Of a DNA stretch of 64,000 bases, positions 1 through 36,838 are shown one piece after another (the stretch's first letter is position 1; each line of letters begins with the position of its first letter). This DNA comes from Tumidithrix helvetica PCC 7403. GTDB taxonomy: Bacteria > Cyanobacteriota > Cyanobacteriia > Pseudanabaenales > Pseudanabaenaceae. The notes under the pieces are model-generated. The model worked only from the letters and a program-made list of their open reading frames with translations, was not told where the DNA came from and ran no database searches. Location of the stretch: positions 1-64,000 of the forward strand of contig NZ_CBDDRA010000001.1 in assembly GCF_965232925.1 (NCBI RefSeq). The letters run 5' to 3'. Made by a program: the position numbers and the translations under genes.

Positions 1-62
1 TGCCCTTCTTCATGTGCTTTGATGATGCATTTTCTCAGGTCTTCTGAATATGCGACTCCCAT
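1..62 (-). mobile_element. IS630/Tc1-family transposase, N-terminal fragment; the gene runs off the window edge
   Basis: The minus-strand ATG at 62 sits behind an AGAGGAAAAG RBS and translates MGVAYSEDLRKCIIKAHEEG, the winged-helix N-terminus typical of IS630 transposases. Only about 20 aa are visible. Confidence 0.4.
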
Positions 63-84
63 TCTTTTCCTCTTTTCTCTAATT

Positions 85-492
85 CTACCTTGTGTCCGTA
101 CTTTCTTGAAAACCGCGATATGATTGGTTATGATGTTCTCTTACTGCTTCATAGAGGCGACGTGACATCTCAATAGGAATTCCAGCAGGAGGACATTGAA
201 CTTTTACCCATTCAATGCCACCTGCAAGAATCACTTTGATCAGGTCAGGTGTGGATTCAAGCAGTTCTAAGAATTTGTGAACGAAACTCTCCTTTTGAGT
301 CTCAGTAGTAGGAGGATAGGTTTGAGCAAGCTGATTTAATATGTCTTGAATCTTTTGGGCAGCTACAGCAAGGTCTTGTTCGGTTATATTTACATTTTGC
401 TGAAATTTGATATTACTATTTTCAGCAGCATAGTTGACACCGATAGTTGCATTGTTTTGATTGAAGTTGATGATTGGTTGTTTGTCAGTCAT
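85..492 (-). CDS. hypothetical protein of 135 aa; its N-terminal motif is duplicated in the upstream ORF
   Basis: An ATG-initiated ORF lying downstream of, and co-oriented with, the NACHT gene. I recognise no family for it. Its N-terminus PIINFNQNNATIGVNYAAENSNIKFQQ is paralogous to the C-terminus of the ORF at 498-884. Confidence 0.45.
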   Translation of the reverse strand: MTDKQPIINFNQNNATIGVNYAAENSNIKFQQNVNITEQDLAVAAQKIQDILNQLAQTYPPTTETQKESFVHKFLELLESTPDLIKVILAGGIEWVKVQCPPAGIPIEMSRRLYEAVREHHNQSYRGFQESTDTR

Positions 493-497
493 GATGG

Positions 498-884
498 TTA
501 GTCCTTTCTAGTTATATCTTTGATAATTTGGTTAAATTTGATATTGCTATTTTCAGCAGCATAGCCAACGCCTATAGTTGAGTGGCTTTGGTCAAAATAA
601 TTGACTATGGGTTTTCCTTGTGTTGACAAGTAAAGATTTTCTCCTTTTTGTGTTTCTAATTCAGAAAGATGGGCGACTTCATAGTTGTAATACTGGCAAT
701 TTAACTGAATGGAAGCGATCGAATATAGTGCCTGTACACCAAACTCAGTTTTGACGAGTTCAAATAACTGAGGTAAATACTCAGCAGCAGAATCTTTTTG
801 AAATTGACTGAAAGCCTGATATACAGAATCTTGAACTAGCTCATCAGGATCTTTTGTAGATTGATTAGGTCTGGAATTGATTCT
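498..884 (-). pseudogene. ATG-less ORF of about 128 codons, paralogous to 85-492 at its C-terminus; a possible frameshift product or decayed gene
   Basis: My own translation of the minus strand runs ...QDSVYQAFSQFQKD...TQGKPIVNYFDQSHSTIGVGYAAENSNIKFNQIIKDITRKD*. There is no in-frame ATG, GTG or TTG between the upstream stop at 885-887 and this point. The frame differs from that of the NACHT gene, which ends at 836. Confidence 0.3.
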
Positions 885-3800
885 CTATCTTGAATTGACC
901 CTAATTCAATAATTGCAGAAGACCTTACTAAGAAGTCAGGATCTTTTAATGCCTTGAGAAGTTCTATTTTCACCTCTGGACAACCTAATTTAATAAGAGC
1001 TTCTAATACATTTCTACGAGTAGTAGAGTCTTCGCATCTTATGGCTTTTAATAGAGATGGACATGCTTTTTTATCTCCGAGTTGTCCTAAAGCTGATGCT
1101 GCACACGCCTTATTCGAGGGATTTTCATTCTCAATGATTTTAATTAATTGTGGTATGGCTTTACTTAGAATTTCAATTTCTTCTGGAAATTGTCGAATTA
1201 ATTTAGCATCTAAAATATTGCAAGCACTAAGTTGAACCCAACTATCTGAATCACTCAATGCTTCTATTACTTTTGACAGCGCATCTCTTCCCAAGAAGGT
1301 ATACAATTTCTGGATTGCATTACCTCTTTGAATGGGAATATTAGATTTTAAAGCAGAAATACACTGTTCTGCTTCTCTTTTTTGTATTGCCTCATGATTA
1401 AGACGTGAAGACTTTATATTTTTCTGGATTTGCAAAGATATTTGATCTCTCACAAATTCCAATGAATGTTCAGATTCCAAATGAACATAATGATCTAAAT
1501 CTAAACGTGCTTCGTTTAAGAGAGGAATAACTTCGCTACCACCTAATTCCCTCAACATTTTTACTACAGTTATTTTAAGTGATACATCTTTACTAGATAA
1601 AACTTTAGACAAGGTATTTAGAACCTTTTGGCGATCAAGTTCTTTTAATGTTTCAACTGCTAGTCTCTTTATTTGACGTTCAGGATTTTCTGTCGCTTTG
1701 AGTAAGCTAAGAATTGCTTCTTCATTCACAAATTTTTGCAATGCGAATACCGCTCTTAGGCGAACATCTACTGATGAGTCATTTTGTAACACTCTATCCA
1801 AAATTGGGATTGCAATGTTATTCTTAGAGTCACCTAAAGCCCAAACTATATTTTCTCGAATTTTAGGGGCTGAGTCTTTCAAAGCAATCTCCGATAGAGT
1901 AATAATTACATCGCAAGGCATTTTTCTTAATGCCCAAGCCGCTCTTCTACGAACATTTTCATTTTGATGGCTGAGTAAAGTTTTGAACCCATCGACAGAT
2001 TGAATTGACTCAGTTTTTTCTAAAAGCGTAATTTTAACAAGGTCAGTCGTATTAATATTTTCAACTAGCTTAACTGTTGTCTCCTGAATTTCTGCTTTTG
2101 CCTCACCTGATAGTCTTGCGCCCAAAAATAAATCAACATCTAAAGCTTGTTGTACGACTTGTTCTACTAAATCATTGATGTCTGGGAACCCAAGCATGAT
2201 AGCGATCGCCTCAGTCCATTTTAGATAATTGAGATAATCCATCTGAAATGGCGTATATTTCTGATCTTCTTTTTTTTCTATAAGTTCAGGTAGCTTAGCA
2301 AGTATATACTCTGCCGCATAGTACTCTTGAAGCGATGGATGGCAAAACTGAACTTTACGACTACCAGCAGTTCCATTACATTGTAATAAATGATTGCTCA
2401 ATAAATTTTTCCGTATTTTTTCTCTGCCAATCAAGGTCAGAACATCTCCTTCATTAAAAGGCTTTTCAGAACGAGTCATTTCAAATGCAAGTAAGCTTAA
2501 CTGGGATCGCATCTCGGTCAAAACAACCCAATCAACTTCATCTTTCGCTTCTCTGGAATAGATATCTGTAAATTCCTGGTAAGCTTCTCCACGAGTATTA
2601 GGAGTCTCTTTAAGAGGATTTTGCTTAAAAATAATGTATAACATCCAAACCATCAGAGGAGTTTGCCCAAAATCACGCACGCGATCGCATAACTCCTGAA
2701 CCCGACTATTACCATGATGATCGGGTAATTTTTCACTAAAAAAGTCTTTAACCTTTTCAGAGCTTAATGGTTGAATTTCTAGCTTTGTCTGGATGCCTAA
2801 ATTACCTACATTAATATCGCGTGTAGTTGCAATCATCGGGAGATGATCACCACAGAAATACTTAAAAGCTCTATATCCATCACTTGATAACTCATTAACA
2901 CCATCTGCAAGCAGCACTAACCGCTTATACTTAATAAGTCTCTTTATATAAGTTATCTGTTCACTTTCCTGCATCTCTTCCAAAAATTCAAATCCTTCAA
3001 ATGCATCTCTAATCAATAGTAAAAAATCTGACTGATTCTGATAATCTTTTAACTTAATTAATAGTGGAATAGGAGAATTTGGATTTTGTAGTGCTTCTTT
3101 TGCCGCTTCAAGCAAAACTTTAGCTAAAATAGTTGATTTACCCGCTCCTGCTTTACCAACAATTAAAACTCGTTCGCTTGAAACTTGGCTAAGTGCATCT
3201 AAAATTGGCAATATAGCTGTCTTATCATCATCACTCGCTGAAAGTGAATTAGTCTCATTATTGAGTTTAGACTTAGGCACCTTTACAGTTAGTTCAAGCT
3301 CCTGCCAAGGTGCATTATTAATTTCATTCATGAAAGAATAAGAATCTTCCCACCAATCTTGATATTTCTGCTTAACAGCCTCTAGATAATTCCCTTCCTC
3401 CAAACTCATCACACCATTTGCTTTTGCACAATCCATTGCTAGTTGCTTTTCTTTTCTTATTTCATCTATTTCATTAATAGTGGCTTGATGGATCTCTTCA
3501 CCACGACGGATAAAAACAGTGCTTTTCGGATATCGCGTTCCATTAGGGAGCATCAGATCGCGGGTTGTTTCATGCAAATAAGGTGTGGGCGGAATAGATA
3601 CTATGAATAGTTGTTTACTATCCATCTCTATGAATTTGCATTGGATATCAGGAATAGGTGGATTACAGCAAGCATTAACTTTTTGAAGGATTTCTTTAGG
3701 AGTCAATGTAATGTGACTACAATCATACAAGTCTCTTGTTCCATCAGATTTCAGTTTGTCTTCAACTCCAACAATCAAAAATGCCGTTTCCCCAGCAGTA

Positions 3801-3964
3801 CCAATATTCCCATTTACTAAAGCCAAAACATCTCTAACAAACTCATCTTGAAATTTAGCTTTCATTGACTTGTCAGATGAATCAACCATGTTCAACTGTC
3901 GCTTGAAGTCAAACTTTAACCCCTCTTTCCTTCCTAGCAATTCCTTAAGTTTTTCAATATTCAT
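836..3964 (-). CDS. STAND NTPase of 1042 aa with N-terminal AlbA_2/Schlafen-like domain, NACHT P-loop NTPase and C-terminal HEAT/PBS-lyase-like repeats
   Basis: The N-terminus LKFDFKRQL...ETAFLIVGVEDK matches the AlbA_2 pattern. Walker A is LIVGKAGAGKST and Walker B is LVLLADGVNEL. C-terminal repeats of the form DVRLRAVFALQKF, ENVRRRAAWALRKM and PKIRENIVWALGDS look like HEAT units. The gene is AT-rich and HIP1-poor compared with its flanks. Confidence 0.8.
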   Translation of the reverse strand: MNIEKLKELLGRKEGLKFDFKRQLNMVDSSDKSMKAKFQDEFVRDVLALVNGNIGTAGETAFLIVGVEDKLKSDGTRDLYDCSHITLTPKEILQKVNACCNPPIPDIQCKFIEMDSKQLFIVSIPPTPYLHETTRDLMLPNGTRYPKSTVFIRRGEEIHQATINEIDEIRKEKQLAMDCAKANGVMSLEEGNYLEAVKQKYQDWWEDSYSFMNEINNAPWQELELTVKVPKSKLNNETNSLSASDDDKTAILPILDALSQVSSERVLIVGKAGAGKSTILAKVLLEAAKEALQNPNSPIPLLIKLKDYQNQSDFLLLIRDAFEGFEFLEEMQESEQITYIKRLIKYKRLVLLADGVNELSSDGYRAFKYFCGDHLPMIATTRDINVGNLGIQTKLEIQPLSSEKVKDFFSEKLPDHHGNSRVQELCDRVRDFGQTPLMVWMLYIIFKQNPLKETPNTRGEAYQEFTDIYSREAKDEVDWVVLTEMRSQLSLLAFEMTRSEKPFNEGDVLTLIGREKIRKNLLSNHLLQCNGTAGSRKVQFCHPSLQEYYAAEYILAKLPELIEKKEDQKYTPFQMDYLNYLKWTEAIAIMLGFPDINDLVEQVVQQALDVDLFLGARLSGEAKAEIQETTVKLVENINTTDLVKITLLEKTESIQSVDGFKTLLSHQNENVRRRAAWALRKMPCDVIITLSEIALKDSAPKIRENIVWALGDSKNNIAIPILDRVLQNDSSVDVRLRAVFALQKFVNEEAILSLLKATENPERQIKRLAVETLKELDRQKVLNTLSKVLSSKDVSLKITVVKMLRELGGSEVIPLLNEARLDLDHYVHLESEHSLEFVRDQISLQIQKNIKSSRLNHEAIQKREAEQCISALKSNIPIQRGNAIQKLYTFLGRDALSKVIEALSDSDSWVQLSACNILDAKLIRQFPEEIEILSKAIPQLIKIIENENPSNKACAASALGQLGDKKACPSLLKAIRCEDSTTRRNVLEALIKLGCPEVKIELLKALKDPDFLVRSSAIIELGSIQDRESIPDLINLQKILMS

Positions 3965-4030
3965 GGCAGAGGCATTAAGAAGGTTACAATTGAGGCAGAG
4001 TGATTGAGTAGCAACTATGCTTGTAATATC

Positions 4031-4291
4031 TCACCTATACACATCCTTCCGATGGGCGATCAAGAAGATTGTAATATTCTTGCTTTTCTCATCAACGAGA
4101 TAAACCACTCTGTAATCACCAATGCGATATCGCCAATAGCCCAAAAAATTTCCTTTTAGTTTCTTAATATCAGAACCTTGATAAGGGTTTTGACTCAAAT
4201 TATCAAAGCATTCATTCAATTGAAGGACTAACTCATTCTCAGCTTTATCGTAGAACTTTTGAGCCTTACGAGTCATCAATATCTCATACAT
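4031..4291 (-). CDS. RelE/ParE-family type II toxin
   Basis: The 86-aa product ends ...RYRIGDYRVVYLVDEKSKNITIFLIAHRKDVY, the RelE/ParE signature. It overlaps the upstream antitoxin ORF by 8 nt. Confidence 0.8.
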   Translation of the reverse strand: MYEILMTRKAQKFYDKAENELVLQLNECFDNLSQNPYQGSDIKKLKGNFLGYWRYRIGDYRVVYLVDEKSKNITIFLIAHRKDVYR

Positions 4292-4535
4292 GGCGGCGAA
4301 TACTTTTGAAAGAAACTACATCCCCTCTTTCAACCTCTCGTAAAGCCTCTTGAAAGTCATTTTCAAAGTTAGGAATACTCAATAACTCATCTGTTGCCTC
4401 ATTGCTTTCTCTTTCGTCCAGATAAGCTAAAAAATCAGCAGCCACGCGCAACCGTTCAGGTGAGAGCCTTTTCAAAATTGCCTCGATCTTTTGGACAGTA
4501 TAGAGATTTTCAGCAATAACTTCCATATAAATCAC
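4284..4535 (-). CDS. type II antitoxin, partner of RelE/ParE; family unassigned
   Basis: A small acidic ORF sits immediately upstream of the toxin and overlaps it translationally, which is the classic TA operon layout. Confidence 0.55.
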   Translation of the reverse strand: MIYMEVIAENLYTVQKIEAILKRLSPERLRVAADFLAYLDERESNEATDELLSIPNFENDFQEALREVERGDVVSFKSIRRHV

Positions 4536-4708
4536 CCGAAATACATACTGCTAACATTTTACAAGAAAATTAAGTTAGGTCGATTTAGCAATCACCTTTA
4601 GCTAGTCTGATGTAGATCGCGACTCTGCCCAAAACAAATGCGATAGCTCGTGCTTTATTTGCTGCAATCGTAAAAAATAATCACATTGTTTACAATATAG
4701 TGTAGCCA

Positions 4709-5017
4709 GTGAACTCAAAACCTTGTATGCGATCGCTAAACACAGAGATCCTTAACGGAGAACCCTATAGCTATTATCCACTTGGACAATACGTCGTTCG
4801 AGCCGTTGGAGTTTGTGGCGATCGCCCAACCTTCAAATATACGCGCATCGAAATTACAGGCGCGATCGAACGGCTAGCTACAGGTGAAAGTATGGATAAC
4901 ATTGTGCAGGGATTTCGCGGACGCGTATCCCGTGAGGCAATTTCAGAAGCTCTCCAAGTTGTAACCACCCATTTTCTTGAAAGTCTTCCAAGTAGCATGA
5001 TTGTCCTTAACGAATAA
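4709..5017 (+). CDS. DUF433-like small protein
   Basis: RPTFKYTRIEITGAIERLATGESMDNIVQGFRGRVSREAISEALQVV follows the DUF433 pattern of GxRpxxxGTRI plus an 'eeIledyp...aL' helix. There is no obvious partner gene. Confidence 0.45.
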   Translation: MNSKPCMRSLNTEILNGEPYSYYPLGQYVVRAVGVCGDRPTFKYTRIEITGAIERLATGESMDNIVQGFRGRVSREAISEALQVVTTHFLESLPSSMIVLNE

Positions 5018-5125
5018 CTTATTGCGATCTCTTATACATTCTTTACGACGAGGTACACAGAAGCTAAGATGGCGCGATGTAGAATCGCTATGCTCCTTAT
5101 TTGTTAATAATTTCAGTCTAAGCCT

Positions 5126-6025
5126 ATGTTTGAAGTCTCAGTTCCTGCCACCACTGGTAATCTTGGTCCCGGGTTTGACTGTTTAGGTGCAGCCCTATCG
5201 CTTTATAACAAGTTTCAGTTTGCGGTGTCAGACGAGCTGAAGATTACAGCCTCTGGGGCAGGGGCAGATAAAGTTGCGAAAAATAAATCCAACCTTGTTT
5301 ACGAGAGCTTAGAAAAGTTTTATGCCCATATCGGTCAGCCAAAACCAATTATCTCTCTACATATTGATGCTCAGGTTCCGCTAGCAAGGGGGTTAGGTAG
5401 CTCGGCAACGGCAATTGTGGGTGGATTGGTAGGGGCAAATCTCTTGGCTGGCTCCCCTCTAGATCAAAAAGATTTGCTGCAATTGGCGATCGACATGGAG
5501 GGACATCCCGATAATGTCGTACCTGCCATGTTAGGCGGCTGCTATTTGATGGCTTCCAATAAAAGTGGCGGATGGGAATTTTGTCCAATTAACTGGCATA
5601 AACAGGTGGCGATCGCGATCGCCATTCCCAACTTTGAGCTTTCGACTGCCAAAGCCCGTCAAGTTTTGCCCCGCGACGTTCCGATGAAAGATGCCATCTT
5701 TAATGCCTCGCACTTAGCCCTGTTAACCCACGCCCTTACCACGGGCAATCAAGATTGGCTGCAATCGGGCTTGCAAGATCGCCTCCATCAACCCTACCGT
5801 CAAAGCCTAATTCCGGGGATGGAAGCCGTCCAGAAAGCGACGATCGAGGCAGGAGCCTATGGCATGGTGATCAGTGGGGCTGGCCCAACCCTATTAGCGC
5901 TTGGTAGCCCTGCTAAAATAGAAGCAGTAGCAGAAGCAATGCGTGCGGCTTGGCAAGAAACGGGTATGATTTCGACAGCGAAATGCCTCGCGATCGCCAA
6001 GAATGGCACAACTATTACAGGTTAA
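5126..6025 (+). CDS. thrB: homoserine kinase (GHMP kinase family)
   Basis: PATTGNLGPGFDCLGAAL is the GHMP motif, and the 299-aa length and overall layout match ThrB. Confidence 0.9.
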   Translation: MFEVSVPATTGNLGPGFDCLGAALSLYNKFQFAVSDELKITASGAGADKVAKNKSNLVYESLEKFYAHIGQPKPIISLHIDAQVPLARGLGSSATAIVGGLVGANLLAGSPLDQKDLLQLAIDMEGHPDNVVPAMLGGCYLMASNKSGGWEFCPINWHKQVAIAIAIPNFELSTAKARQVLPRDVPMKDAIFNASHLALLTHALTTGNQDWLQSGLQDRLHQPYRQSLIPGMEAVQKATIEAGAYGMVISGAGPTLLALGSPAKIEAVAEAMRAAWQETGMISTAKCLAIAKNGTTITG

Positions 6026-6199
6026 TTGCCTGAAGCACTTCAGCTACCTTAGCTTGCTACGGTTGACTACAGCGCTGAGACTGCGATCGCTTTGACGATC
6101 TGCGATCGGCGGTAGTGTATATTGTGGCTAATCTTTGTAGGCTAAAATCTCTATAGGTCTCTCGGTTAATATTCATTTTGTCAGTCGTTTGGAATCTCT

Positions 6200-6460
6200 A
6201 TGACTAAATTCCAGTTTCTTCTGGTCTCAGCCCTAGTAACCTCGGTCGTTTTCCTATTTATCGGCAGCCGTGATAGTAACTCACTGGCAGCCATGTTTCC
6301 CGTGGTCGCAATTATGACCCTCTCAGCACTGGCAAATCGCTTTGTTTCTGAGCCTGTCTGGGAAAAAGTGGCAATTTGGGCAAATACGACTGCTGGTCGC
6401 CGGATCTTTCGGACAAAGCAAAAACGCTTGCCCCCTTCTAGATCTCGCCGCATCCGCTAG
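6200..6460 (+). CDS. small membrane protein, hypothetical
   Basis: Two hydrophobic segments are followed by a basic tail. It ends 3 nt before the next co-oriented gene. I preferred it over the overlapping antisense ORF 6181-6453. Confidence 0.35.
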   Translation: MTKFQFLLVSALVTSVVFLFIGSRDSNSLAAMFPVVAIMTLSALANRFVSEPVWEKVAIWANTTAGRRIFRTKQKRLPPSRSRRIR

Positions 6461-6463
6461 CCA

Positions 6464-7465
6464 TTGATTGGGATTTCTAATTCTTTGAGTAAACTAACTT
6501 CACCCTTACGCGTTGGTATTGTTGGTACTGGCTTTGTTGCCAAGTTACGCGCTGAAATTTTAAGCCAAGATCCGAGGGTACAACTCAAAGCGATCGCAGG
6601 TAGCGCCGACAAAGCCAATGCCCTTGCCCAAGCCTTTAATATCGAAGCCCATTCCTATTGGTCTGAGCTAGTGGTCAGACCCGATCTCGATCTCGTGGTT
6701 GTTGCCAATGTCAATCGCGATCACGGTGCAGTTGTGGCTCAAGCACTTAGAGCGGGTAAGCATGTCATTGTCGAATATCCTCTAGCCTTTAGCTATTTCG
6801 AAGCGGAAGCTCTCGTGCAATTGGCTCAAGCCAACCATTTACTCCTCCATGTCGAACATCTCGAACTGCTCGGTGCGGTTCATCAAACTGTCACAAAGGT
6901 TTTGCCAGACCTAGGGGAGCCATTTTATGCGCGTTATGTGACTCAAAATCCCCAGCGTCCAGCCCCAGATAAATGGACCTATATGCCAGAGCTGTTTGGG
7001 TTTCCCTTGGTCGCCGCAGTTTCGCGCGTGCATCGATTGACGGCTCTATTTGGTAAAGTCAAGTCGGTTGCTTGTCAGTTGCGCTATCAAGGCGATGCCT
7101 TGCCTCGACGATATACTTCTTGTATTTGCAACGCCCAGCTTCAGTTTGTCAGTGGGCTAGTTGCCGATATTAGCTACAGCAAAGGCGAACATCTGTGGAA
7201 ATCAGAGCGCAGTATGGAGATTCAAGGTAGCAGTGGTGCTGTTTTATTTGAGGGTGAGTCGGGCAAATTAATTACGGCAGATGGTGAAACCGTACTTACC
7301 GTCGATAGTCCTAAGGGTCTGTTTAAACGCGATACAGAAAATGTTTTAGACTATTTGTTTGATGGCGTTCCACTCTATACCAATTCGGACAGTTCGCTCC
7401 ACGCGATCGCAGTCGCCTGCGCTGCCGAAAAAGCGGCAAAAACAAATACTGTGATTGAAGTTTAA
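6464..7465 (+). CDS. Gfo/Idh/MocA-family NAD(P)-dependent oxidoreductase
   Basis: The N-terminal Rossmann fold VGIVGTGFVA is followed by the EYPLA motif characteristic of this family. Confidence 0.85.
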   Translation: MIGISNSLSKLTSPLRVGIVGTGFVAKLRAEILSQDPRVQLKAIAGSADKANALAQAFNIEAHSYWSELVVRPDLDLVVVANVNRDHGAVVAQALRAGKHVIVEYPLAFSYFEAEALVQLAQANHLLLHVEHLELLGAVHQTVTKVLPDLGEPFYARYVTQNPQRPAPDKWTYMPELFGFPLVAAVSRVHRLTALFGKVKSVACQLRYQGDALPRRYTSCICNAQLQFVSGLVADISYSKGEHLWKSERSMEIQGSSGAVLFEGESGKLITADGETVLTVDSPKGLFKRDTENVLDYLFDGVPLYTNSDSSLHAIAVACAAEKAAKTNTVIEV

Positions 7466-7657
7466 AGCGATCGCTGAGAAATCGATTTGCGTATGAGAAG
7501 ATACATAAGAAAACTGTAAGAGAGTGTTTGAGAAGTTAAGCAAGTCGCTTTAGGAGAATTTGAATCATCGCCTCAGGTGGCGCTAGTTCCAACCTCAAAA
7601 TTACGGTTAAGTGTGCATTTCCCAAGAAACCTGCCTAATTTTTAAACATTCCCCGCT

Positions 7658-8692
7658 ATGGCAATCAACAAAGTACTGCTGCTATCAGCCAATCCAACCA
7701 ATACCGATCGCTTGCGGGTAGAGGCAGAATTTCGCGAAATCGAGACCTGTTGTCAAAAATCGACGTTACGCGATCGCTTTGCGATTGTGGCAAAAGGAGC
7801 CTTACGGATTGAGGATCTGCAACCCGTTTTGATTCAAGAAGCACCCAAAGTGGTGCATTTTTCGGGACATGGGGCAGCAGAGAATGGATTGGTTTTAGAA
7901 ACGGATGCAGGCACATGGGAACTGGTTGCCACAGAACCCCTCGCGGAACTGTTTCGCATTCTCCAAAATGGTATTGATTGCGTCGTGTTAAATGCTTGTT
8001 TCTCTCAGGTGCAGGCAGAGGCGATCGCCCATCATGTGCCCTACGTCTTGGGCATAAATCAGGCAATTGGCGATACGGCAGCGATCGCATTTGCCAAGGG
8101 ATTTTATGGCGCACTGTTTGAAGGCAAATCGGCGAAGGATGCCTTTGAGTTGGGCAAAAATCGCATCGCCTTAAAAAATATTCCCGAAGTTCAAACACCA
8201 GTTCTGATAGAACGCCACGGCGGAACACATCCCCAAAATGGGAATCGCATCCCCAACCAAGTTTTACCACTCCAGATCGCGCTAGAAGAACCCGAAGGAA
8301 CGGTACGAATTGGTTTGCAATTCTACATTCCCCGATCGCCTCAAGAAGAAGGCGCCTACGAAGCGATCGCCCGCCTCCATGCTCTCTTTCGTTTCAAGTC
8401 TCCCGATCGCATGGGCAAATCTTCGCTCTTAGTGCGAACCTTAGAAGAAGCCCGTCGATTGGGCAACCGCACGACATGGAGCGACCTGCAAAAATGCGAT
8501 CGCAAATTCCTAGAAAACATGGATCGGTTTTTGCAATGGTTCTGTGTTGTGATTGGACGCAATTTGGGCGTGAAAGCCAAACCAACCGATAGATGGGATG
8601 ATGTTTTTGGCGCCAATGGTATCTGTACGGAATTTTTTGAAGAACATCTGATCGGCGAGGATTATGAAAAAACTTTTGCAACTGGGGCTTAG
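7658..8692 (+). CDS. CHAT-domain (caspase-like) protease fused to a truncated AAA-like (AAA_35) domain
   Basis: The catalytic dyad context is VVHFSGHG ... CVVLNACFS. The N-terminus KVLLLSANPTNTDRLRVEAEFREIE is typical of cyanobacterial CHAT proteins. The C-terminus FRFKSPDRMGKSSLL...FLQWFCVVIGRNL matches the start of the cyanobacterial AAA-like domain, but the ORF stops before the expected Walker B. Confidence 0.75.
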   Translation: MAINKVLLLSANPTNTDRLRVEAEFREIETCCQKSTLRDRFAIVAKGALRIEDLQPVLIQEAPKVVHFSGHGAAENGLVLETDAGTWELVATEPLAELFRILQNGIDCVVLNACFSQVQAEAIAHHVPYVLGINQAIGDTAAIAFAKGFYGALFEGKSAKDAFELGKNRIALKNIPEVQTPVLIERHGGTHPQNGNRIPNQVLPLQIALEEPEGTVRIGLQFYIPRSPQEEGAYEAIARLHALFRFKSPDRMGKSSLLVRTLEEARRLGNRTTWSDLQKCDRKFLENMDRFLQWFCVVIGRNLGVKAKPTDRWDDVFGANGICTEFFEEHLIGEDYEKTFATGA

Positions 8693-33961: not shown

Positions 33962-36838
33962 ATGCGCTCTCGTCTGAAATTAATTGGTGTTACTGCGATC
34001 GCGCTATCTCTCTCTTTCAGCCAAGTCTCTACCCTCTATCCCCTAGAACCTGCTTCTGCCCAAACAACACAAGAGCGCAAGCTAGTTTTAGCATTGAATG
34101 AATCGCTTAGGGAATTACTAGGGCCTGCTTCTGCCCAAACGACACTACTAAATCGTCAGGCAGAGGCAGATCGGCTGTTGCAGCAAGGGATTCAGCAAGC
34201 TTACATCAGTCAGTTTGAGGCAGCATTTCAATCATGGCAGCAAGCATTACAGATTTACCGAGCGATCGGCAACCGTCAGGGAGAAAGCTATGCGCTGGGA
34301 AATCTGGGAAACGTATACCAAGCCCTCGGCAAGTACGACAAAGCCATCGAGTACGCAGAGCAAGCCTTAGCGATTGCGCAGGAACTAAAAGACAAAAAGA
34401 GTGAGGGTACAGCGCTAGGAAATCTGGGAAACGCTTACTATTCCCTCGGCAGGTACGACAAAGCGATCGAGTACCAACTGCAAAGCTTAGCGATCGCGCG
34501 GGAAATCAAAGACAGACTGGGTGAGGGACAGTCGCTGGGAAATCTGGGAATTGCTTACAATGCCCTCGGCAAGTACGACAAAGCGATCGAGTACCAACTG
34601 CAAAGATTAGCGATCGCGCGGGAAATCAAAGACAGACTGGGTGAGGGACAGTCGCTGGGAAATCTGGGAAACGCTTACGATGACCTCGGCAAGTACGACA
34701 AAGCGATCGAGTACCAACTGCAAAGCTTAGCGATCGCGCGGGAAATCAAAGACAGACTGGGTGAGGGACAGTCGCTGGGAAATCTGGGAATTGCTTACCG
34801 AAACCTCGGCAAGTATGACAAAGCCATCGAGTACCAACTGCAAAGATTAGCGATCGCGCGGGAAATCAAAGACAGACTGGGTGAGGGCGCAGCGCTGGGA
34901 GGTCTGGGACTCACTTACTTTTATCTGGGTAAGTACGACAAAGCGATCGAGTACCAACTGCAAAGCTTAGCGATCGCGCGGGAAATCAAAAACAGACTGG
35001 GTGAGGGTACAACGCTGGGAAATCTCGGAATTGCTTACGATGCTCTCGGCAAGTACGACAAAGCGATCGAGTACCAACTGCAAAGATTAGCGATCGCGCA
35101 GGAAATCAAAGATAGGAAGGGTGAGGAACAGTCACTGGCAAATCTGGGAATTGCTTACCGAAACCTCGGCAAGTACGACAAAGCGATCGAGTACCAACTG
35201 CAAAGCTTAGCGATCACGCGGGAAATCAAAGACAGACTGGTTGAAGGCGCAGTGCTTGGAAATCTGGGAAACGCTTACATATACCTCGGCAAGTACGACA
35301 AAGCGATCGAGTACCAACTGCAAAGCTTAGCGATCACGCGGGAAATCAAGGATAGAGAAGGCGAAGGCAAAGCGCTCAACAATATCGGCTCTGTCTTGGC
35401 AACCCAAAAACAACCAGATCTTGCCATTCTCTTTTACAAACAATCCGTCAAAGTATGGGAGTCCATTCGCAAAGATATTCGCAAACTCGATAAATCGGAG
35501 CAAAAATCTTATTTAGAAACCGTCTCTGTTAGCTATCGTAGTCTCGTCGATCTCCTACTCCAACAAGGGCGAGTCACTGAAGCATTACAAGTTCTCGACT
35601 TGCTCAAAATCCAAGAACTCGAAGACTATCTCAAAAATGTCAAAGGAAACGATCGCACGGCAAAGGGAGTCGAACTTTTAGCGCCAGAGAAAGCGATGAG
35701 CGAACAGCTATCAGCTCTCAGCTATGAAAAGATTCCAGAACTCAACCGCCAACTTGCCAGCCAGATTCAGCAACTGCCAAAATCAGAAATCAACAAAGTT
35801 CCTGACTACTTACAAAAGCTACCAAAAGGAGCTGTCCTACTCTATCCCCTGATTCTCGAAGATCGTTTGGAACTGATCGTCTTCTCCGCCAATACCTTCC
35901 CCATCAACCGCACCGTTCCCATCAAAAAAGCCGATCTAGAGAAACTCGTTACAGATGTTCGCGCTGACTTGCGAGACTACACTTCCCTAGACATCAAAAA
36001 CTCTAGCCCCAAACTCTACGACATTCTGATCAAACCCATCGAAGCCGATCTCAAACAAGCCAACGCTACCACCATTCTCTATGCCCCTGACGGAATCCTG
36101 CGCTACATTCCCCTTGCTGCACTTTATGATGGCAAACAGTGGTTAGTAGAGAAATATCGCATCGATAACCTGATTGCCTATAGCCTCTTCGATCCAGATA
36201 GCAAACCTCAATCCAACATTCGTATCTTTGCAGGTGCATTTGGTGGTAAAAAAGGAGAAAACCGATTTGGAGTTGACGGATTGCCTGCCACCATTCCCGA
36301 AGTCGAAAACATTCAAACTTCATTCCCAAATACGACCAAGCTCATCGAGCAGGACTTCACAGCCCAAGCCAGCAAAGTAAAAGTTTCTGGTAATGCGATC
36401 GTCCACATCGCCACCCATGCTAAGTTTATATCGGGCAGCCCCTTAGATTCCTACGTGTTGTTTGGCGATGGCAGCAAAGTCACCCTAGCCGAGATTAATG
36501 ACTGGCAGCTCAAGGATGCCGATTTAGTCGTTCTCAGTGCCTGCGAGACAGGTGTAGGCAGCTTAGGCAATGGTGCGGAAATTCTCGGTTTTGGCTATCA
36601 GGTACAGCGTGCGGGGGCAAAGGCTTCGATCGCTTCTCTCTGGACGGTATCCGATGGCGGCACGCAGTTGTTAATGGAAGCGCTGTATAGCAATTTGCAA
36701 AAGGGAAATACCAGCATGTCAACTTCGCTCAGAGAGGCACAGCTCAGCATGATTCGCAGATCGGTAAAGCAGGGAGAGATTAACTTCAACCATCCCTATT
36801 ACTGGTCTGCTTTCGTCCTGATTGGGAATGGGCTGTAG
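33962..36838 (+). CDS. TPR-repeat / CHAT-domain protease, 958 aa
   Basis: There are more than 10 TPR units (LGNLGNAY...GKYDKAIEY). The C-terminal CHAT dyad context is IVHIATHAKF ... LVVLSACETG. Confidence 0.85.
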   Translation: MRSRLKLIGVTAIALSLSFSQVSTLYPLEPASAQTTQERKLVLALNESLRELLGPASAQTTLLNRQAEADRLLQQGIQQAYISQFEAAFQSWQQALQIYRAIGNRQGESYALGNLGNVYQALGKYDKAIEYAEQALAIAQELKDKKSEGTALGNLGNAYYSLGRYDKAIEYQLQSLAIAREIKDRLGEGQSLGNLGIAYNALGKYDKAIEYQLQRLAIAREIKDRLGEGQSLGNLGNAYDDLGKYDKAIEYQLQSLAIAREIKDRLGEGQSLGNLGIAYRNLGKYDKAIEYQLQRLAIAREIKDRLGEGAALGGLGLTYFYLGKYDKAIEYQLQSLAIAREIKNRLGEGTTLGNLGIAYDALGKYDKAIEYQLQRLAIAQEIKDRKGEEQSLANLGIAYRNLGKYDKAIEYQLQSLAITREIKDRLVEGAVLGNLGNAYIYLGKYDKAIEYQLQSLAITREIKDREGEGKALNNIGSVLATQKQPDLAILFYKQSVKVWESIRKDIRKLDKSEQKSYLETVSVSYRSLVDLLLQQGRVTEALQVLDLLKIQELEDYLKNVKGNDRTAKGVELLAPEKAMSEQLSALSYEKIPELNRQLASQIQQLPKSEINKVPDYLQKLPKGAVLLYPLILEDRLELIVFSANTFPINRTVPIKKADLEKLVTDVRADLRDYTSLDIKNSSPKLYDILIKPIEADLKQANATTILYAPDGILRYIPLAALYDGKQWLVEKYRIDNLIAYSLFDPDSKPQSNIRIFAGAFGGKKGENRFGVDGLPATIPEVENIQTSFPNTTKLIEQDFTAQASKVKVSGNAIVHIATHAKFISGSPLDSYVLFGDGSKVTLAEINDWQLKDADLVVLSACETGVGSLGNGAEILGFGYQVQRAGAKASIASLWTVSDGGTQLLMEALYSNLQKGNTSMSTSLREAQLSMIRRSVKQGEINFNHPYYWSAFVLIGNGL
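34290..35390 (+). repeat. about 9 tandem copies of a 120-nt unit (40 aa; TPR units) with very high nucleotide identity
   Basis: The unit ...ctcggcaagtacgacaaagcgatcgagtaccaactgcaaag(c/a)ttagcgatcgcgcgggaaatcaaagacagactgggtgagggacagtcgctgggaaatctgggaa... recurs head-to-tail. Confidence 0.7.

Follow-up and report, generated by a model that had tools for sequence, protein, structure and literature searches.

A Schlafen-NACHT-HEAT gene, probably of the NLR-like STAND type and frameshifted, in a low-GC cassette of Tumidithrix helvetica PCC 7403

We analyzed positions 1 to 64,000 of contig NZ_CBDDRA010000001.1 of Tumidithrix helvetica PCC 7403 (hereafter, the window), whose start is the end of a 429-kb contig. 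On the minus strand, the gene TUMEXPCC7403_00010 encodes a protein of 1042 amino acids (aa). We read it, with a probability of about 0.7, as an NLR-like STAND protein that joins a Schlafen RNase effector, a NACHT switch and a HEAT sensor, travels in a 4.5-kb cassette, and is damaged in PCC 7403. An earlier interpretation made from the nucleotide sequence (the sequence-only reading) had proposed a defense-type Schlafen-NACHT-HEAT STAND protein. Our results support that proposal, and the open reading frame (ORF) is exactly as it was described (Table 1). The sequence-only reading missed that the ORF is shortened relative to all close homologs. Below, homologous proteins are cited by P numbers and loci in other assemblies by L numbers.

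Domain architecture

Matches to Pfam families were judged against the curated cut-offs. The N-terminal domain matched SLFN_AlbA_2 (PF04326) at aa 14–161 with 38.8 bits (cut-off 25.3), and with 42.2 bits when the head alone was the query. NACHT (PF05729) was matched at aa 265–413 with 32.6 bits (cut-off 26.7); NB-ARC likewise passed (29.9 vs. 23.5 bits), and the scores do not discriminate sharply between the two. HEAT_2 was found in five stretches at approximately aa 650–1040 (152.6 bits), together with HEAT_PBS (66.4 bits). These are the three parts that the sequence-only reading had named. The layout of effector, NTPase and repeat sensor that it ascribed to the bacterial NACHT type was recovered, and effector swapping was seen among the relatives.

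The list of NACHT features attributed to Koonin and Aravind (2000) reportedly comprises a Walker A, a Walker B whose Asp is followed by a small residue (D-G) and, further on, by an acidic one, a sensor-1 Arg, and winged-helix motifs. The corresponding stretches are all intact in the protein: GKAGAGKS (270–277), LVLLADGVNE (349–358), IATTR (378–382), and TPLM (435–438) with HPSLQEY (542–548). The earlier claim of an intact P-loop with both Walker motifs is therein confirmed. Precomputed NACHT matches are present in most homologs. Divergence is greatest in the HEAT region, with 26–51% identity to close relatives vs. 65–85% for the NACHT module.

The Schlafen head

A profile built from 16 heads and searched against the PDB sequences had a single match, CbCash (9ylu, E = 6e-6); phmmer with just one head sequence as the query gave none there. 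In a family-guided alignment, E14, D19, K21, and R22 of the head pair with E17, D22, K24, and R25 of CbCash, as do D69 with D59 and H131 with H128, at an identity of 28% over 139 columns. CbCash is a cA4-activated tRNA endonuclease with an E17-D22-K24 center that holds Mg2+ and with R25 lining the pocket, and these residues are needed for tRNA cleavage (PMC13462974). The Ex4(E/D)xK motif defines the prokaryotic Schlafens, and the E15A/D20A substitution in RorSlfn5 abolishes defense (PMC13056530).

AlphaFold models the head with confidence (pLDDT 89.6, pTM 0.84). As the sequence-only reading would have it, the modeled fold, with the C-lobe of AlbA_2/Schlafen proteins, agrees with those of AlbA_2, SAMD9, and SLFN. 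Because the Pfam cut-off is passed, the catalytic set aligns with that of CbCash, and the fold model is confident, we assigned the head as a Schlafen nuclease domain; from its sequence and model it is predicted to be a metal-dependent RNase that acts as the effector.

An exhaustive search of 1.84 billion representatives gave 265 members of the head subfamily at E <= 1e-30, and E-x4-[DE]-x-K was kept in 147 of its 150 best representatives. Five further proteins came from a word-indexed search with the head alone. The motifs NGN and IPPTPYLHETTR are conserved and peculiar to this subfamily, and the tails that follow its heads are very diverse.

Module shuffling and distribution

The NACHT-HEAT chassis is common to 62 homologs, which differ in their terminal modules. 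At the N-terminus they carry a Schlafen head, a head of ~300 aa ("GGGGGYEYQ"), an HNH-like CxxC, Mrr_cat, or HTH head, or a bare leader of ~80 aa; some end in a C-terminal CHAT or TIR. The Schlafen head also occurs on NB-ARC-like/TPR and nSTAND3 proteins and on proteins with a membrane-like hydrophobic tail or a short tail. The domain phylogenies are discordant, and the head and the NACHT module have different histories. The head is 73% identical to that of P0044, with only 28% identity in the NTPase/NACHT region, and the comparison with P0002 gives 84% for NACHT and 61% for the head.

Among 185,579 species-representative genomes, the head subtype was found at only eight loci, all of them in metagenome-assembled genomes of Chloroflexota. 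The close relatives are on cyanobacterial-looking metagenome contigs with unrelated outer flanks. Given the swapping of chassis and heads and the sporadic distribution, we count the gene among the modular, horizontally moving genes of conflict systems and not among the housekeeping genes. Horizontal acquisition had been suggested in the sequence-only reading and agrees with the unrelated flanks, the sporadic distribution, and the swapped modules; the syntenic orthologs of a housekeeping regulator, which that reading had set against itself, were not found, the gene being non-syntenic. P0008 (L005), a relative with another head, is flanked by a Qat system (QatABC), an integrase, transposases, a group II intron, and Tn3, an anti-phage context that belongs to the relative and not to the window.

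Two observations concern the terminal slots of the chassis. The alternative head of ~300 aa, which starts MSGSGGGGGYEYQARA, occupies the effector position in P0007–P0019 (e.g., L005 6001..6930) and has no family match in Pfam or NCBIfam. In P0037 and P0042, a PD-(D/E)xK-like signature, GHVDLAVEKDDFIWLGEAKIY, is present in the C-terminal modules after the YNYE landmark and suggests a nuclease in the C-terminal slot.

The frameshift

The DNA homology to the relatives (blastn) extends from 4603 down to 119 of the window, well beyond the annotated stop of the gene. The closest homologs are longer (1202–1314 aa), and the alignment of their C-termini passes through three different frames of the window. 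The ORF ends with AAT CTA CAA AAG ATC CTG ATG AGC TAG. The next frame reads KDPDELVQDSVYQAFSQF, which matches LLEEDDEFVESSIYKALRQF of P0002 and LLKDPDVVVYSSISEVLGKF of P0009, and this match shows that one base is missing from the A-run. The 1-nt deletion removes approximately 115 C-terminal aa: the protein has 1042 aa, compared with ~1157 in split relatives or the 1202–1314 in fused ones (see below). An independent Logan assembly (L010, which covers 92..7650 of the window) has the identical sequence.

The out-of-frame remainder is 52% identical to P0002 (tblastn, frame -2), and its C-terminus and stop recur in P0008/L005 and L022. Programmed -1 frameshifting at CAA-AAG was considered and is unlikely; since the relatives encode the stretch in a single frame, we read the break as a deletion specific to the PCC 7403 copy. 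The truncation takes away the last HEAT-like helices, the YNYE landmark, and a motif copy and, together with the insertion described below, it probably leaves the allele impaired or inactive.

Module X and the shared motif

A second apparent break lies downstream of the remainder. In L005 (P0008) and L022, the NLR ends in ...NSNIKF.QIIKDIT(K/R)KD plus a stop, and a separate ORF that starts MTDKQPIINFNQNNATIGVNYAAENSNIKFQQN begins 5 nt further on; the DNA of this junction is nearly identical to that of the window. In the fused relatives P0002, P0005, P0006, P0007, and P0010, the junction is translated as Q-G-L-T-I-M-T-D. We explain the fused form by a deletion between two AAGGA microhomologies in which the NLR lost its own copy of the motif. 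A duplicated motif as a second lesion was considered and rejected, given that L005 and L022 are split in exactly the same way. This break is thus not a lesion, and the unit consists of an NLR of ~1157 aa and a small partner, module X (TUMEXPCC7403_00005), with AAGGA 9 nt before its ATG.

A motif of ~30 aa, rich in N, Q, and G, is shared by the C-terminus of the NLR and the N-terminus of module X. The two copies agree at 59% over 41 aa in the window and at 65% over 31 aa in L005, and none of 2000 shuffles reached the observed score. The genes are adjacent and collinear, and their 5-nt spacer lies within the 10 bp allowed for motif-sharing neighbors. Module X is 81–86% identical among proteins that are otherwise 46–66% identical. 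At four-fold sites, which are few, identity is 0.72 and 0.66 in module X vs. 0.65 and 0.54 in the main ORF. Since module X exceeds the rest of the gene only slightly in synonymous-site identity, recent recombination was rejected, and purifying selection is the better explanation for the conservation of module X.

No Pfam or NCBIfam match was found for module X, and its low-confidence model (pLDDT 56) has four helices. Stand-alone module X genes occur elsewhere; the one in L011 has no partner motif nearby. The pairing of motifs breaks down in two further subclades: P0041 and P0048 end in motifs, but their next genes are toxin-antitoxin genes without a motif.

The arrangement resembles the NLR-associated amyloid signaling pairs with BASS/Bell, HET-s, PP, and sigma motifs (Dyrka et al., 2020) in that a short motif is common to an NLR and to a small helical protein whose gene follows after 5 nt in the same orientation, fused and two-gene versions both exist, and the host is a filamentous cyanobacterium. 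It differs in its inverted topology, with the motif at the C-terminus of the NLR and the N-terminus of the partner, in that no Bell domain was detected in module X, and in the subclades that end in such a motif and lack a matching neighbor gene; the BASS combination, with the motif at the N-terminus of the NLR and at the C-terminus of a Bell-domain effector, is absent here. The C-terminal shared motif with its split or fused module X is the only feature for which we found no precedent. It may be that the chassis has two outputs, the Schlafen RNase and a motif-templated signal (amyloid-/prion-like or otherwise homotypic) that passes from the C-terminus of the NLR to module X. We consider this distinctly unlikely, and it is at equally low odds that such a system would be, by analogy, an inverted-topology counterpart of fungal HET-s and bacterial BASS/Bell signaling.

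In the relatives, module X is directly followed by a conserved ORF of 100 aa, MTTSLISPITTLPKNLPLDGAIAI (L004 13780..14082; L005 10295..11078; L022 1776..2523). In L005 and L022, an overlapping HNH endonuclease gene comes after it. These genes may be further cassette members that were lost from the window through the insertion.

The cassette, the toxin-antitoxin pair, and the left edge

The cassette is 72–75% identical to L004 and L001/L003 (86–88% over module X), and the outer flanks are unrelated (blastn). The low-GC islet that the sequence-only reading described is evident, with a G+C content of 0.33–0.38 over 1..4500 vs. 0.45–0.53 beyond 5000. Its description as HIP1-poor holds only in part: positions 1..4600 have two HIP1 sites (0.43 per kb vs. 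1.46 per kb elsewhere), but other 4-kb bins of the window are just as poor. Because two copies far exceed the 0.016 sites expected from composition, the cassette must have lived in HIP1-bearing genomes.

A RelE/ParE module does stand beside the NLR gene, as had been noted. It consists of a toxin gene and a small overlapping upstream gene, which is the composition of a type II RelE/ParE toxin-antitoxin system. The toxin keeps its position in L001–L004, with 73–75% amino-acid identity. The putative antitoxin has no family match in Pfam or NCBIfam and is 78–82% identical to the ORF in the same position in L001 and L004. In L001–L003 and L004, whose NLRs are 46–66% identical, an ORF of ~80 aa and a ParE/RelE toxin lie ahead of the NLR in the same orientation, the outer flanks differ, and the synonymous divergence of the pair is similar to that of the NLR gene. 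Conserved order and NLR-like synonymous divergence indicate that the pair belongs to the mobile cassette. A toxin-antitoxin pair of some kind is adjacent in six of the eight distinct chassis contexts examined; distant relatives lack the RelE/ParE pair or have other toxin-antitoxin families on the opposite side. We read the association as co-travelling or island co-localization. Promoter- and terminator-like sites in the region were no more frequent than expected by chance.

At the left edge, the relatives read CATAACCAGTCATAA, followed by the ORF of 100 aa, and the window reads CATAACCAATCATA and, past the break, TCGCGG. The homology ends right after the TA of the former TAA stop of module X; 56 nt of unrelated DNA follow, and then an ATG that opens MGVAYSEDLRKCIIKAHEEG. 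Two assemblies both end at this edge. The sequence-only reading had recognized an IS630 fragment here. A break right after TA fits an insertion of the TA-targeting IS630/Tc1 type. The family is unconfirmed: with 20 codons visible, the best Pfam match of MGVAYSEDLRKCIIKAHEEG is a weak one to HTH_SB (E = 0.15). Nothing was found with NCBIfam, by tblastn on plasmids, or in two pattern scans of metagenomes.

At the other border lies a possible orphan antitoxin-like gene, a DUF433 ORF (4709..5017, plus strand) without the PIN_10/DUF5615 partner that stands beside DUF433 in L024.

Proposed mechanism and alternative explanations

By analogy with bNACHT and Avs proteins and with the Schlafens characterized so far, the HEAT array would bind a trigger, most likely a phage protein, and the NACHT module would then exchange or bind nucleotide and oligomerize. 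Oligomerization would bring the Schlafen heads together as an active assembly; CbCash and SLFN11 need multimeric active assemblies (CbCash: PMC13462974). The active heads might cleave tRNA or other RNA loops, which would arrest translation in the infected cell.

Several points weigh against an NLR-like defense protein. This protein and its close relatives are known from their sequences alone, and the NB-ARC score almost equals the NACHT score, which suggests that the assignment to a STAND subclass is not sharp. PADLOC (2023 models) recognizes no known system, and its matches are at the level of repeats or the P-loop. Apart from the toxin-antitoxin pair, the neighbors in the window are housekeeping genes (thrB-like, oxidoreductase). 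The allele is frameshifted, which makes its function in PCC 7403 doubtful. With the damage comes the alternative that the gene is a decaying relic, a pseudogene in PCC 7403 that attests to defense history only, and we put this at slightly less than an even chance. Such a relic would account for the shortening by the A-run deletion, identical in the independent assembly, and for the insertion, which replaces the stop of module X and severs the conserved downstream genes. Against it, 1042 codons are open in DNA of 64% A+T, and two downstream pieces have no further stops; for these reasons we consider the damage recent. All catalytic and NTPase motifs are also intact, and the shortened protein could still act with module X, which has its own AAGGA and could be translated separately.

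Another alternative is a functional three- or four-gene system of which the RelE/ParE pair is a part, e.g., as a second effector, a regulator, or an addiction module by which the NLR is retained. Antitoxin, toxin, and NLR keep their order and strand, with a gap of ~35–66 bp, in the window, L001–L003, and L004, where the outer flanks are unrelated and the divergence of pair and NLR is alike, and no terminator-like site lies between toxin and NLR. We nevertheless find it unlikely: the distant P0049 and the other-head P0008 lack the pair, and other relatives of the chassis carry UPF0175/DUF3368, RelE, VapBC-like, or HicAB pairs on the other side. Pairs of other families on the opposite side of the gene speak for island co-localization or hitch-hiking instead of a specific partnership. 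It is quite improbable that the AlbA_2 head is a nucleic-acid-binding sensor or regulator, the output of the protein lying elsewhere, e.g., in the C-terminal motif and module X. The complete E-x4-D-x-K-R set is conserved, the same position on the chassis is held elsewhere by nucleases (Mrr, HNH-like), and SAMD9, SLFN, CbCash, RorSlfn5, and Avs9 have been shown experimentally to act through this same catalytic site. An accessory effector of type III CRISPR, of the Schlafen-NACHT "Cluster 5" type (Weickert et al., 2026), would share the two-domain combination of the window protein, and among the relatives with a solved structure CbCash comes closest to the head. The window protein has no CRISPR linkage: no cas genes among the large ORFs and no CRISPR-like array were found in the window, neither was found in the flanks of the relatives, and Pfam detected no Csx15, CARF, or SAVED domain in the protein. 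This origin is highly improbable. A housekeeping HEAT-repeat phycobilisome protein like NblB or CpcE/F, to which the NCBIfam matches on the HEAT_PBS repeats point, is effectively refuted by those scores and by the distribution, which is sporadic and non-syntenic. The matches are far below their cut-offs (71 vs. 300 bits for NblB; 51 vs. 330 for CpcE/F) and amount to repeat-level similarity, and a NACHT NTPase and a nuclease head are present.

Comparison with known systems

The gene is a further Schlafen-headed STAND protein, of a kind already published (bNACHT34, Avs9, pSlfn, and Schlafen-NACHT Cluster 5). The survey of bNACHT proteins, which are NLR-related and anti-phage, has Schlafen in its list of effectors and HEAT in that of sensor repeats, and cyanobacteria were noted to be rich in paralogs with swapped effectors (Kibby et al., 2022/2023). 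In the description given there, bNACHT34, whose N-terminal effector is a Schlafen RNase, has the same order of effector, NACHT, and C-terminal repeat sensor, and the likeness is drawn from that description only. The window chassis differs in that it also ends in the YNYE landmark and the N/Q/G-rich motif, with module X fused or separate, and in that the copy is frameshifted. For pSlfn, 55 architectures have been published.

The Ex4(E/D)xK site of the head is common to RorSlfn5 (Nat Microbiol 2026, PMC13056530) and CbCash (Nat Commun 2026, PMC13462974; PDB 9ylu). All three carry the head at the N-terminus, as an effector that a fused sensor controls; the regulator is a NACHT-HEAT STAND in the window protein, Ig-like in RorSlfn5, and the cA4-binding Csx15 in Cash. 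The AlbA_2-STAND protein Avs9 has been published as an analogue of SAMD9. Avs9 and human SAMD9/SAMD9L comprise AlbA_2, SIR2, a STAND P-loop, TPR, and OB; the window protein lacks SIR2, OB, and SAM, has HEAT in place of TPR repeats (Pfam found no SIR2, TPR, or OB domain), and its NTPase is of the NACHT type. We take this as independent assembly of similar parts and not as orthology. The sequence-only reading had likened the layout to NACHT/Avs systems. The bNACHT half of that likeness stands; for Avs1–4 (Gao 2022), the PADLOC models (2023) gave only an Avs2 match in the P-loop region (E = 7.8e-4, 15 bits).

The gene would add a cyanobacterial Schlafen-NACHT-HEAT example to the view of Schlafen tRNases as ancient immune effectors beneath many different sensors. 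Its relatives form a natural series in which the same NACHT-HEAT switch is combined with RNase, Mrr, HNH-like, CHAT, or TIR modules, which is useful for the study of output coupling in NLRs. The conserved module X, split or fused, and its shared motif are an uncharacterized and directly testable feature. In annotation, "frameshifted NLR-like defense gene" would be preferable to "hypothetical protein" or "HEAT repeat protein".

Table 1. Coordinates of the features in and around the cassette (window positions)
Feature	Position	Strand	Basis
TUMEXPCC7403_00010, 1042 aa: Schlafen head, NACHT, and HEAT repeats, shortened by frameshift	836..3964	-	ORF list, Pfam, frames of homologs
Schlafen/AlbA_2 head, aa 1–185	3410..3964	-	Pfam, model
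Catalytic motif E14-G-L-K-F-D19-F-K21-R22	3899..3925	-	Alignment to CbCash E17/D22/K24/R25
NACHT NTPase module with winged-helix/helical region, aa 263–640	2045..3178	-	Pfam NACHT and NB-ARC, motifs
Walker A of the NACHT module	3134..3157	-	Sequence motif
HEAT-repeat sensor region, aa 641–1035	860..2044	-	HEAT_2 152.6 bits, HEAT_PBS 66.4 bits
A-run (CAAAAG) with one base missing; the frameshift yields the stop 836..838	852..855	-	Frame comparison with P0002 and P0009
Out-of-frame remainder of the NLR, ~115 codons: last HEAT-like helices, YNYE landmark, motif copy A (501..629), end KDITRKD and stop	498..851	-	tblastn
Module X ORF TUMEXPCC7403_00005, 135 aa: motif copy B (~394..483), then predicted 4-helix domain; stop replaced by the insertion, +11 codons	85..492	-	Comparison with relatives, model
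Whole low-GC cassette, ~4.5 kb: antitoxin, RelE/ParE toxin, NLR-like gene, module X gene	119..4603	-	blastn to relatives, GC 0.33–0.40
RelE/ParE-family toxin gene, 86 aa	4031..4291	-	ParE_toxin 49.1 bits (cut-off 23), RelE_StbE 44.1 bits (cut-off 27.9)
Putative antitoxin, 83 aa as listed (relatives start at an internal Met, 80 aa)	4284..4535	-	Overlaps the toxin by 8 nt
Conserved upstream leader with promoter-like site (TCGACC, 16-nt spacer, TAAAAT at 4583..4556)	4536..4603	-	End of homology block; consensus match only
End of inserted element, then start of transposase-like ORF MGVAYSEDLRKCIIKAHEEG at 62..3, which runs off the contig	1..118	-	Homology break

Other features of the window

At 3.7 kb from the NLR gene, an ORF of 344 aa (7658..8692, plus strand) encodes a CHAT protease domain followed by the first 122 of the 331 positions of AAA_35; it is apparently a shortened second STAND-like gene of the conflict type. 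A homolog of the Major Vault Protein, a eukaryotic-type protein unusual in a bacterium, has 866 aa (12689..15289, minus strand), with 212.7 bits for the Vault repeats and 180.2 bits for MVP_shoulder, as well as Vault_2, Vault_3, and Vault_4 (Pfam). It adjoins a 700-aa SPFH/Band_7 protein (10483..12585).

A TPR-CHAT protein of 958 aa is encoded at 33962..36838 (plus strand). Its TPR region is a tandem DNA repeat of 120 bp in 8.9 copies (34292..35356, 86% matches), and the HIP1 octamer recurs at an exact spacing of 120 bp across 34490..35090, approximately one per TPR unit. Two large eCIS_core (DUF4157) proteins are encoded on the plus strand, at 49150..52698 and 53088..54980, one of them with GGDEF; the second has a 57/63-bp coding tandem repeat at 53721..53927.

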